Origin: Candidatus Bathyarchaeota archaeon
GTDB taxonomy: Archaea > Thermoproteota > Bathyarchaeia > 40CM-2-53-6
Length of the DNA stretch: 64,000 nucleotides
Direction: 5' to 3'
NCBI GenBank assembly: GCA_963726255.1
Contig: CAVSBL010000002.1
Span: 544,001 to 608,000, forward strand
Part shown: piece by piece, positions 41,372 to 44,793 of the stretch
Position numbering within the stretch: the first letter of the stretch is position 1
Layout: each line of letters starts with the position of its first letter
The notes under the pieces: model-generated
Database searches by the model: none
Seen by the model: the letters and a program-made list of their open reading frames with translations, nothing else
What the model was told of the DNA's origin: nothing
Program-made: the position numbers and the translations under genes

Positions 41372-43651
41372 CTAGGCCCAGTAGGTGACTGGCCACTCAG
41401 CATGGTTCGCCTGGCCGGAATCTCTCAACGCGGCTAAATCATATCCGAAGGGTAGTAGAAGGTTGACAGTTGAGGAAAGAAGCAGATCGACATACCTCTC
41501 TGAGTCGAAGACGGATCCTTCATCCATCAGCTCGGTGGGGAGAGCTCGGTTATGGTTTATTCTGGACTTGTCGTAGGTTAAGATGTAGTTGATTGTTTGC
41601 CCGGCGTGTACCTCCATGCCTTCCGCGGCGAGGTGCTTAGCCGCGATGGCTTGCGGAACCAGGTTTCTGTATTCGTTGGGATTCTTGCTGAGGTGTTTCT
41701 CGATCACGAGCTCTGCGACCGGAATGTTTCCGGTTCTGATTAGGTCAACGTATGACTTAACGACCGCCAGCACTTCGGGTATGAGCGCCATGAATTCCTC
41801 TGAATTGTTCGCCTTCGAGAGTGTGGTTAGCACATCCGTTTGACACCGCCTGACTATGCCGGCAGTGTCATGGCGGCGGAGGTCGATTCCTCTAACTTTG
41901 AGCTTGCCGTCCTGGAAGACTCCGTAGTACCGGTTGAGGACGGGGATTCGCGGGTCCGTTCGCGAGTTCAGGAACACAATCCACTTGTAGCGCCCCTCGA
42001 ACGCTATCGGGAAGTGCAGCTGCTCCTCTATCGTGCGGCATAGCTCCTCGTACTCATCTGGTGTTGCGTTAGGTTTCCAGAGCCACATCGAATCCACGAT
42101 GCCGTGTATGAGTTTGAAGCAATTGGATTCTGCAATCGCGACCGCTTCTCGCAGGATCTTCCGGGAGTAGGCACAGGTTGCGATGTGTGCGTCGATTCTC
42201 CCAAACCGCGCGTTCTTGAAGCCTAGGTATCCAATTGCCCGCCGCGTTCGAGGCGGCTATGAGCAGACTAGGATCCATTTGAGCGCGGCTTGGCGTTGAT
42301 CGTACCGCAACCTTGTAGGTGGGTCCATGGCTTCTTTTTTGTACTTCTTGTAAAGCGCACGTTTTCGGAGTAATATATCGAGCGACCTGGGTACTATGCC
42401 ATTCCATCTTTCACAAACATTCCACCCAAGCTCCGGTACTCGACTAACGGAGTCTGGGCAGCAGTTGCAGCGTATGGTTTCTCCGCTCAGGTTCATGTTG
42501 CGCATTATAGTTGGGTATAGGGAGGAGAAGTCGAGTTCGGCGACGGAGTCGTGTAGGCCGAATTTTGGTTCGTAAATGAAGCCACCGCGGTCCGCTAGTA
42601 TGAGTTCGTTTCCGTTCTTCCACTCCTCGGGCTCGTTCTTGTTCCAGGGGATTAATACGTCGGCTTTGACGGCGTGGTAGAGTTGGAGGGACGTCATGCT
42701 GGTGCCAATCGTCGTTCGCGAGGCCCTCTGCAATGGGATTATGCAGGTTCGGGCCACCTCGAAGAGACCTTCGAGGCCGCAGTCGCTGCTGATGAATCCA
42801 TTCGCCTCGTCCACATGCAACCGGCCCAGTAGTCTTGCGGCGGTTTGCTTGAAGAGTATCTTCCCGTACGAAAAGTAACTGTGGCCTTGCACTTCGTAAA
42901 CCCGAAGCGGCGAATCTTCCCTACCGAGAACCATTTTGTGGAGGATGTGGTGGTGTTGAGCACGCCTGGCCAAGTAGGGGAAAATGAAGGAGTCTCCGCC
43001 TTCCGTCAAGACTACATCCGGGTCAATCTCGCGGAAGGCTGTGACGAGTTTGTTGAGCTTGTCAAGTTCGCTGCCCGAGTCGAAAATTATGGTATCATTC
43101 TTGGTTTGGATTTTGATTAAGTCTAATTCATCTTCAAACCTTGAGATCCTGCAAGTCTTCTTAGTGCTGATTTCTAGCCGTATGTTTCGAAGTGTTGGCA
43201 GTTCGTAGTCGATTGTTTCACGGGAATCCTTGATGGTCCACTTAACGCGGCCATGAGATGCGTCAGCCTCGACGAACGCTAGGGGGAATAGGTCGTTGTG
43301 GTAGAGGTACATCTGAATTGATGGGATATCTACGTCGTAGAGCCTGAACTTCGAGTATCCACCATGCCGGAGGATCTTCCGTGCCAGAGTTTGGGCTTCT
43401 GATTCGTCGTTTACTTCAACTTCGAGAACGTTACTCTTAGTCTGGTCGCCTGCCCTCTCGAATTTCTCGACGAATGTGCATGATGGAATGAATGGTTGGA
43501 GGTTTAGGAGGTCGTCACGTTCTCCGCCAATGTGGATTCGCGGCTTCCAGCCGTCAACTAGCTTGACGCATGATCCGTCGCGCTGCTTGAGCCAGACAAC
43601 CATTTGGCTGGCTTTAGGGTAGAGATCCAAGATCCAGCCTTGATGTTTCAA
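41372..43651 (-). CDS. polB2: Family B DNA polymerase PolB2 (Dpo2-type), interrupted by a 24-nt putative intron; 751 aa if spliced
   Basis: DRGG..EP, DFSSLYPTIM, KWILVCS|FGYLG, HGIVDS (variant motif C), NRYYG, KVRG. Confidence 0.92.
42235..42258 (-). other. Putative BHB mRNA intron in polB2 (AGCCGCCTCGAACGCGGCGGGCAA)
   Basis: 4-bp helix GCTC/GGGC, bulges ATA and AAT, intron stem GCCGC/GCGGC; excision gives TCA TTT GGA (S-F-G) and removes a TAG. Confidence 0.85.
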
Positions 43652-43902
43652 AGGCCCCGCTCTTCGATTCGCTTCTCTAACTCGATGATTTTCTTGTGGT
43701 GCGCGAACAACATCGAAATAATCAGGGGCACCTGTTTTATTGGTGAGGCCATTACACTCGCCGCCGACGCTAGCAACTTACACTGATTCAACATATCTTC
43801 GAAAATGATTTTGTCTTCTTGCCTGAGAAATTCCTGAAACCTTTTCAATTTTTCAACCTCGGCCTCTACGACCATTCTCCATGACGGGATTGTTCGTCCC
43901 AT
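43648..43902 (-). CDS. Small PolB2-associated protein
   Basis: MGRTIPSWR...LR.ED..IF; translationally coupled between RadA-like gene and polB2. Confidence 0.8.
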   Translation of the reverse strand: MGRTIPSWRMVVEAEVEKLKRFQEFLRQEDKIIFEDMLNQCKLLASAASVMASPIKQVPLIISMLFAHHKKIIELEKRIEERGL

Positions 43903-44651
43903 CACAGGTAACTCTCCAAAGTCTCTACCCCAAGCGAGGATGCTGTGGCGGTGCGTGGGGGAAGCCACGGATGTTTCAGTAGTGAAACTCGGGTCAGGCC
44001 GCCTTTTTCCTCGATTGTTGCGAAGACATGTACAGCCTGTGTAAGGATGCGATCCATTAGCGCGTTTCTTGATTCTATGTTCGTCGCAATTATCAGACAT
44101 TTTTGTTGTCGAGCGAGGCTTGCGAGATTTCTCGCGGCTTTCGCGAAAATGCGAAGTGCATCCTCTTTATCCTCGCCCCGTATATCCGGGTCGCAGTAGA
44201 GTTGCGTAATGTCGGAGACGACAACGAGTTTCGCCTTGAATTTCTTTATCGCAAGTTGGAGTTTGTCGGTTATGAGGCATGCGAGTTGGTGGTGGGTGAA
44301 AGCCCTACTGACATGCAGCCGTTCTAACACTGTCTCCGTGTCAAGGCCATGCTCAACTGAACGGTCTGAGATATAGTAAGGGTCGAAGAGGTTGCCGCCG
44401 TCAACGAATACCGTATCGCAGTCCGGACCCAATGGTTGCGGAAGTGTCGCCCTGACGCAGAGTAGCATAGAAAGGGCGTGTGCAGGTTTACCCTGAAACG
44501 TAGCAAACTGGCCGAAGTTGAGCCTCAAGATGCCGTCTAAGGCTTCCATGCCAGAGGTCAGATCAGGTTGCAACTGTTGACGCTTGCTTAGCAGAAGGTC
44601 GTTAACTTTGACGAAATTTTCGACAGCTACTTCACAATTCAATGGAGCCAT
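43902..44651 (-). CDS. Inactive RadA/RecA-like protein of the PolB2 cassette (start uncertain)
   Basis: TSG..ALD, FVDGGN.FDPY, VSRAFT.HQL; Walker A absent. Confidence 0.8.
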   Translation of the reverse strand: MAPLNCEVAVENFVKVNDLLLSKRQQLQPDLTSGMEALDGILRLNFGQFATFQGKPAHALSMLLCVRATLPQPLGPDCDTVFVDGGNLFDPYYISDRSVEHGLDTETVLERLHVSRAFTHHQLACLITDKLQLAIKKFKAKLVVVSDITQLYCDPDIRGEDKEDALRIFAKAARNLASLARQQKCLIIATNIESRNALMDRILTQAVHVFATIEEKGGLTRVSLLKHPWLPPRTATASSLGVETLESYL

Positions 44652-44793
44652 AGAATTGCCGTGAAGAATGCAAGCAGATAATCTGGGAGACCAGATTATG
44701 CGCATCTCTGTCAGAGACACGTGAATGTAAAGCGTTCTGCATTTTGAGGCGTTCACTGAGGCTGGAAGTTGTTACGGAGTAAGGTGGTTCAAC

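Follow-up and report, generated by a model that had tools for sequence, protein, structure and literature searches.

A predicted 24-nt bulge-helix-bulge intron within motif B of a PolB2-like DNA polymerase gene in Bathyarchaeia

Results

A gene predicted to encode a repair-type, PolB2-like family-B DNA polymerase is interrupted within motif B by 24 nucleotides (nt) at positions 42258 to 42235 of the minus strand of a 64,000-nt stretch of the genome of a soil archaeon, a “Candidatus Bathyarchaeota” (GenBank assembly GCA_963726255.1, contig CAVSBL010000002.1, positions 544,001 to 608,000; this stretch is referred to as the window, and positions are counted from its first letter). Based on comparison with related genomes and on the predicted RNA structure, the 24 nt very probably constitute an archaeal bulge-helix-bulge (BHB) intron; cleavage and ligation of the transcript, and any regulatory use of splicing, are what we infer from it. 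An earlier note, prepared from the letters of the window, had proposed such an intron and had suggested that its excision joins two open reading frames (ORFs), a proposal supported here by inserts at the same site in relatives, by compensatory changes in the predicted structure, and by selection on the second exon.

The interrupted polymerase gene

The upstream ORF (43651 to 42257) terminates at a TAG codon (42259 to 42257), which is the sole interruption of the polymerase gene, as the downstream open frame lies in register with the upstream ORF and no other stop was found within exon 1 or exon 2. The two exons (1,393 and 863 nt) amount to 751 codons and a stop. Only excision of positions 42258 to 42235, which places the T at 42259 beside the TT at 42234 and 42233, restores the conserved Phe codon; read-through translation yields 8 additional residues (465 to 472), with Ile in place of Phe. 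The letters at 42222 to 42272, the 751-residue product, and the stop of the unspliced RNA at the TAG all agree with what the earlier note had read from the minus strand.

Pfam matches to the encoded protein included DNA_pol_B (5.9e-28) and DNA_pol_B_exo1 (8.3e-07). A search of the protein collection with the polymerase produced more than 2,000 relatives, and those carrying names were Bathyarchaeota or Bathyarchaeia. Full-length homologues were 62 to 78% identical, with the N terminus aligned from residue 1. The read-through translation was aligned with 21 homologues, picked from 120 listed, among those without an intein annotation. Residues 465 to 472 were missing from all 21, each of which read Cys-Ser-Phe-Gly-Tyr-Leu-Gly-Phe across the gap, and alignment to a solved Pyrococcus polymerase likewise placed the insert residues opposite a gap inside motif B. 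Exon 2 was conserved from its first codon (invariant G474 to G484 and onward). The features of the locus are listed in Table 1.

Table 1. Positions of the polymerase gene, its predicted intron and structural elements, and neighboring ORFs in the window
Feature	Positions	Strand	Basis or remark
PolB2-like family-B DNA polymerase gene, two exons	41372..43651	−	TTG start at 43651, TAG stop at 41374-41372; reading frame, Pfam, homologues
Exon 1, 1,393 nt	42259..43651	−	Last base is T, the first of the split Phe codon
Predicted 24-nt BHB intron	42235..42258	−	Gap in homologues, same-site inserts in relatives, structure counts
Exon 2, 863 nt including the stop	41372..42234	−	Opens with TT of the Phe codon
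In-frame TAG; translation of unspliced RNA would end after residue 464	42257..42259	−	
Predicted central 4-bp helix, 5′ strand GCUC, exon 1	42261..42264	−	Paired in 23 of 23 distinct sequences
Predicted central 4-bp helix, 3′ strand GGGC, intron	42237..42240	−	Minimum free energy fold, structure counts
Predicted 5′ bulge AUA; predicted cut 42259/42258	42258..42260	−	Invariant in 24 of 24; cut set by protein alignment
Predicted 3′ bulge AAU; predicted cut 42235/42234	42234..42236	−	Variants in relatives: AGU, AUU
Predicted inner hairpin GCCGC, 7-nt loop, GCGGC	42241..42257	−	5 bp; 4 of 4 counted pairs covary
Predicted distal exon-exon pairing, 5′ strand, W-I-L-V codons	42268..42277	−	89.6% of cells paired
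Predicted distal exon-exon pairing, 3′ strand, L-G-F-K codons	42217..42226	−	Minimum free energy fold, structure counts
Small ORF, between RadA-like and polymerase genes	43648..44100	−	Stop abuts the polymerase start; no Pfam match
Rad51/RadA-like ORF upstream	43902..44756	−	Pfam Rad51 (8.8e-11)

Inserts at the same nucleotide in related genomes

The polymerase was sought in 105 genomes of the same order, 74 of which had a match at E ≤ 1e-80, and the junction was read wherever the match was split or had a stop near residue 465. This alignment of polB2 genes from related archaea, which the earlier note had named as a check, revealed an insert at the same nucleotide in 24 genomes from five genera and two families: 10 in the genus of the window (g1), 3 in genus g3, 8 in genus g15, and 3 in a second family (f2). 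Insert lengths were 20 nt (4 genomes), 21 nt (1), 23 nt (1), 24 nt (6), 26 nt (1), 31 nt (1), and 32 nt (10), with the variation confined to the loop of the hairpin. The lengths in 17 of the 24 genomes shift the frame, approximately the share that a length free of coding constraint would give. All 24 alleles carried UAG or UAA directly after the predicted 5′ cut, and in all of them the Phe codon was divided across the insert, one base before it and two after.

Some alleles showed other irregularities near the site. In L012 (G003), a 20-nt predicted intron was accompanied by a 1-nt insertion about 24 codons upstream, and the unspliced DNA was open throughout, in a single frame that garbles about 27 residues across motif B; possible causes are an error in sequencing, decay of the allele, or a frameshift that has been compensated. 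An otherwise intron-less homologue, L030 (G036, family f5), had an extra G eight codons before motif B that shifted the frame. The stop flagged in G006 was the natural end of the gene.

Predicted RNA structure and proposed splicing

The predicted transcript structure contained two 3-nt bulges on opposite strands with a 4-bp helix between them, and a cut between the second and third base of each bulge restored the motif B of the homologues in 24 of 24 alleles. In pre-tRNAs, the anticodon loop supplies the exon bases that pair with the downstream part of the intron, and the splicing enzyme cuts the bulges at just these places; the cuts expected from that geometry are exactly those required by the protein alignment. 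The minimum free energy (MFE) fold had an energy of −34.6 kcal/mol (z = −2.1; 5 of 200 shuffles folded equally well). AAUU was unpaired on its 3′ side (AAU being 42236 to 42234), and the exon-side helix at the 3′ bulge had a U-U mismatch and then the pairs C-G and U-G, with CCUAG/CUAGG pairing further out. This stem had earlier been described as relaxed, and in all 24 sequences the helix next to the 3′ bulge indeed opened with U-U or U-C. The window contained no Rfam match and no tRNA predicted by ARAGORN.

The fold alone is not significant, because motifs of equal strictness occurred at about 0.0015 per position per strand genome-wide, or about 190 per 64 kb on both strands; with position and length both fixed, about 8e-5 would be expected by chance. 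The weight of the evidence lies in the 23 further genomes that keep the predicted motif at the identical nucleotide. Across the 24-sequence alignment, the central helix was 100% paired. One of its pairs changed from U-A or U-G to G-C in the three sequences of the second family, in which the exon codon at that place encodes Ala instead of Ser, and all four counted pairs of the inner helix had changed on both sides. In the predicted structure, 92.5% of cells paired, compared with 26 to 49% when the partner was slid by one to three columns. An initial alignment of 11 sequences gave no significant covariation, and the signal arose only once more distant genomes were included.

Under the proposed mechanism, GCUC of the exon would pair with GGGC of the intron in the transcript, forming the 4-bp helix between the two bulges, and the inner hairpin would stabilize the 5′ bulge. 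The splicing endonuclease would then cut after the second base of both bulges, and RtcB would ligate the exons. Spliced mRNA would encode an intact motif B and a protein of 751 amino acids (aa), and translation of unspliced mRNA would end at the UAG after residue 464.

Several observations weigh against a BHB intron or limit its support. No shuffle out of 500 reached the covariation score, a control that overstates significance since the sequences are related. The distal exon-exon helix (10 bp) lacked compensatory changes and may result from the coding sequence alone. The exon-side helix is weak, with one or two pairs after the U-U or U-C, so that the motif is relaxed and departs from the strict hBHBh′ form, in which helices flank both sides (the inner helix has 4 to 6 bp). 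In the MFE fold of some relatives, the central helix was lengthened and the 3′ bulge displaced. The cut position within the bulges is itself carried over from the 37/38 geometry of pre-tRNA. RNA contigs gave zero coverage of positions 42200 to 42300, which says nothing either way: of six RNA sequencing runs found, four were examined, and X1, the only run with words of this gene, produced three contigs of 163 to 174 nt at 42582 to 43473; X2 produced four contigs below 95% likeness, and X5 and X6 produced none.

Alternative explanations of the interruption

A second half made as a separate polypeptide and a ribosomal hop over the insert are both very unlikely here, as is the decay of the gene; all three are poor fits because exon 2 is conserved, lacks an early start, and is preceded by a split Phe codon. 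Split family-B polymerase genes are described in Methanobacteriales and Nanoarchaeum (PMC4104785), and a version of the site with one extra nucleotide is present in three relatives. A stop codon within a hairpin also resembles known bypass sites. In the window, however, start codons are lacking between the stop and the conserved beginning of exon 2, and the earliest ATG, GTG, or TTG of the exon 2 frame is at 42097, 46 codons downstream of that beginning and within motif C. A Phe codon that is split one base and two in every interrupted allele could not be reassembled by restarting translation or by hopping from one codon to a matching one, and the compensatory changes are specific to the 4-bp helix between two bulges.

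Read-through or recoding of the TAG, leaving a polymerase with 8 extra residues in motif B, is highly improbable. The length of the insert in the window is divisible by three, its only stop is the TAG, and 7 of the 24 alleles are in frame, as read-through would require; in-frame lengths are nevertheless no commoner than one in three, and read-through cannot serve the frame-shifting majority. It would also put Ile where every aligned homologue has Phe, and would lodge the insert inside the motif B helix, opposite the gap in the solved structure. TAG is an ordinary stop in this genome, where it terminates 339 of 1,002 open frames of at least 300 codons and also the polymerase gene itself. No PylS scored above the cutoff in the genome (best match, 28 bits; cutoff, 178 bits). 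Amber read-through, one of two outcomes that the earlier note had named as refuting an intron, is accordingly disfavored.

The other such outcome was a decaying exon 2 combined with a lack of spliced reads. An in-frame stop in a catalytic motif, where gene callers would give two ORFs, could mark a polymerase inactivated by a nonsense insertion, to which we assign very little probability. Exon 2 is under purifying selection: pairwise ratios of nonsynonymous to synonymous substitution rates (dN/dS) were 0.055 to 0.17 for exon 2 and 0.05 to 0.16 for exon 1, with similar values for the uninterrupted genes of relatives, and the exon 2 range covered also pairs of genes with frame-shifting 20-nt inserts. 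Neither exon contains further stops, and the interruption has been kept with a conserved fold in 24 genomes of two families. An assembly or sequencing artifact has a negligible probability, since the interruption recurs in 24 separate assemblies, among which synonymous sites and intron lengths vary, even though the genome bin has an estimated contamination of 9.3%.

History of the predicted intron

A maximum-likelihood tree of exon 1 was built from 18 loci, leaving out L012 (upstream frameshift), L005 (cut by a contig end), and every allele of g2 and g15 as well as the f2 alleles with an intron. Two intron-less pairs (G006 with G010 and G019 with G017) nested within the intron-bearing clade with support of 100/99, and the intron label required three changes on the tree, a pattern consistent with one gain and two precise losses. 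As introns are present in the second family too, the intron may be older and have been lost more often, or it may have been transferred. Searches for intron copies elsewhere in the genome (blastn-short) returned chance-level matches only.

Splicing machinery of the host genome

Both activities that BHB splicing would need, a splicing endonuclease and an RNA ligase, are encoded in the host genome. Two EndA paralogues (188 and 187 aa) matched PF01974 above the cutoff. The first closely resembles crenarchaeal enzymes (7.7e-41) and, judged by eye, has a Tyr/His/Lys pattern; the second is divergent and lacks the His. RtcB is also encoded (match, 8.5e-172). The two paralogues probably form a two-subunit enzyme. 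Two-subunit and epsilon-2 types of EndA cut noncanonical introns (PMC5829648). The earlier suggestion of a broad-specificity endonuclease, of the kind found in Thaumarchaeota, Aigarchaeota, Crenarchaeota, and Korarchaeota (TACK), finds partial support in the presence of two paralogues, as in two-subunit enzymes. ARAGORN with introns allowed returned 35 genes in the whole genome, 31 of them “with intron,” including implausible introns of 500 to 2,800 nt; this output was uncurated and was not used.

Identity of the polymerase

The label PolB2-like is reasonable but not proven. Both a family-B polymerase domain and an exonuclease domain were found (Pfam; alignment to Pyrococcus PolB), and motif C reads I-V-D compared to D-T-D in the solved enzyme and in active enzymes generally, with the motif A Asp retained; such a degenerate motif C agrees with the partial replacement of catalytic residues in PolB2. 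The operon predicted for PolB2 also contains a RadA-like gene and encodes a small alpha-helical protein (PMC4104785), and the small ORF between the Rad51/RadA-like ORF and the polymerase gene fits that partner in place and size. The identification as PolB2 in the earlier note is favored by the neighboring ORFs and motif C; the best NCBIfam matches, to “type B DNA-directed DNA polymerase” (349 and 327 bits), fell below their cutoffs (516 and 692 bits). Two other family-B polymerase genes, both uninterrupted, were found in the genome (G000:C2:212848-213972 and 877548-878846; L002 and L003), and their products were 29% and 25% identical to this polymerase. DNA damage induction and a mutagenic role are reported for Sulfolobus Dpo2 (PMC7390963, PMC8764526). 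Speculatively, and in line with the earlier note, splicing gated by DNA damage could control an error-prone polymerase.

Inteins and alleles with one extra nucleotide at the same spot

An intein separated Cys463 from Ser464, at a point 4 nt before the intron site, in all 19 intein-bearing homologues examined (P0015 to P0121). These inteins were 182 to 532 residues long, and five of the 19 had a LAGLIDADG domain. The insert of the window is not an intein, being 8 codons long and beginning with a stop, and the genuine inteins of homologues are placed one codon before it. None of the intein alleles examined (19 proteins; L029, L071, and L027) had the intron.

In three genomes of genus g2 (L037, L038, and L039; G050, G054, and G044), a single extra T was found at the intron site (TCC-TTT-CGG-C). 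These alleles had neither intron nor intein, and the gene lay in two frames, with both halves open and conserved. They possibly represent a programmed +1 frameshift (Phe tRNA moving from UUU to UUC), the scar of an imprecise intron loss, or a split gene. A “hungry codon” explanation was rejected, as CGG makes up 13.5% of Arg codons in the genome of the window, which serves as a proxy for another genus, and is not rare there.

Intron, intein, and frameshift allele were never seen together, an exclusivity to be read with the facts that single-ORF predictions would hide combinations and that the groups are phylogenetically separate. The intron might persist by breaking the DNA target of the homing endonuclease of the PolB2 intein, so that intron alleles would be immune to intein invasion, an idea that we consider unlikely. 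If it were true, motif B would be a contested spot with three mutually exclusive states: BHB intron, intein, and the +1-nt allele.

cbf5 and other candidate split genes in the genome

Outside the window, the cbf5 gene of the same genome had a 19-nt BHB insert (G000:C2:296552-296570; L050:1694-1712) with a CCCU/GGGG central helix, 3-nt bulges AGA and UAA, and an inner GAC/GUC helix. This insert lies within the codon of the catalytic Asp, the position occupied by the experimentally demonstrated intron of crenarchaeal cbf5 (PMC2738675). A cbf5 match was found in 29 of 31 relatives, and in nearly all of these it was either broken in two or interrupted by a stop within a single match. In G006, G013, and G018, cbf5 was in three or four pieces, with further breaks at profile positions of about 148 to 154, 193, 211 to 215, and 232 to 234; these could be more introns or assembly frameshifts.

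A genome-wide scan for genes split by introns, requiring 80 open codons on each side and later filtered for a 4-bp inner helix, reduced 9,366 raw candidates to 155 with a compact hairpin shape. Twenty candidates were inspected by ORF geometry and looked like adjacent genes or overlapping frames, none of them convincing. The scan cannot show the absence of other introns, because its filters missed the cbf5 intron. A repeated element in three identical copies (G000:C1:7063, C5:6044, and C2:2134109), in which two frames of about 350 codons meet at a hairpin, is probably an insertion sequence.

Discussion

Watanabe reportedly described the cbf5 pre-mRNA intron of Crenarchaeota in 2002. That intron, also treated by Yokobori in 2009, is the closest parallel in several respects: it is short, BHB-like, within a protein-coding gene, and EndA dependent; it splits a codon of the catalytic core; and its distribution is patchy, with gain and loss inferred (PMC2738675). 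The host gene differs, being a pseudouridine synthase gene in which splicing was demonstrated by experiment, whereas here the host is a DNA polymerase gene, the lineage is Bathyarchaeia by source names, and splicing is predicted.

The predicted polymerase intron shares with archaeal pre-tRNA and pre-rRNA introns the order of 3-nt bulge, 4-bp helix, and 3-nt bulge and, presumably, processing by EndA and RtcB, and its size is near that of short pre-tRNA introns. Unlike those introns, it lies in an mRNA, the exon half of its central helix is also constrained by codons (Cys-Ser/Ala-Phe), and its outer helix is relaxed. Inteins of family-B polymerases interrupt the same motif and are likewise removed after transcription, but they are removed as protein of 182 to 532 residues, whereas the polymerase insert is 24 nt long, contains a stop, and has no intein feature.

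The HAC1 and XBP1 mRNAs of eukaryotes contain a very short intron in the coding sequence, cut by a structure-directed protein endonuclease and sealed by an RtcB-type ligase, with its removal altering downstream translation; the nuclease is IRE1, the substrate is formed by twin stem-loops, and splicing is regulated by stress. The short intron and the RtcB-type ligase would be shared with the polymerase intron, whose splicing is predicted, and the nuclease and the host domain differ. The role of RtcB in this unconventional mRNA splicing is described in PMC8718801. In Haloferax volcanii, the BHB intron of HVO_1309 is also an mRNA substrate of the splicing endonuclease; it lies in the 5′ untranslated region, whereas the polymerase intron interrupts the frame and carries a stop (PMC7714728).

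According to the same 2020 paper, which adds the BHB intron in the Haloferax mRNA leader, crenarchaeal cbf5 mRNA was the only additional case of a BHB intron beyond tRNA and rRNA reported before 2020 (PMC7714728). A literature search found no BHB intron in a polymerase gene. The polymerase gene would thus be a new host gene, in a new lineage, for a known intron mechanism, and the second protein-coding host gene.

The 24 genomes, with inserts of seven lengths, provide enough natural variants for the substrate rules of the enzyme to be inferred by comparison. Intron-split polymerase and cbf5 genes are probably misannotated as fragments or pseudogenes in many assembled genomes. The occurrence of intron, intein, and frameshift allele within a few bases of one another lets one ask why such elements cluster in catalytic motifs.

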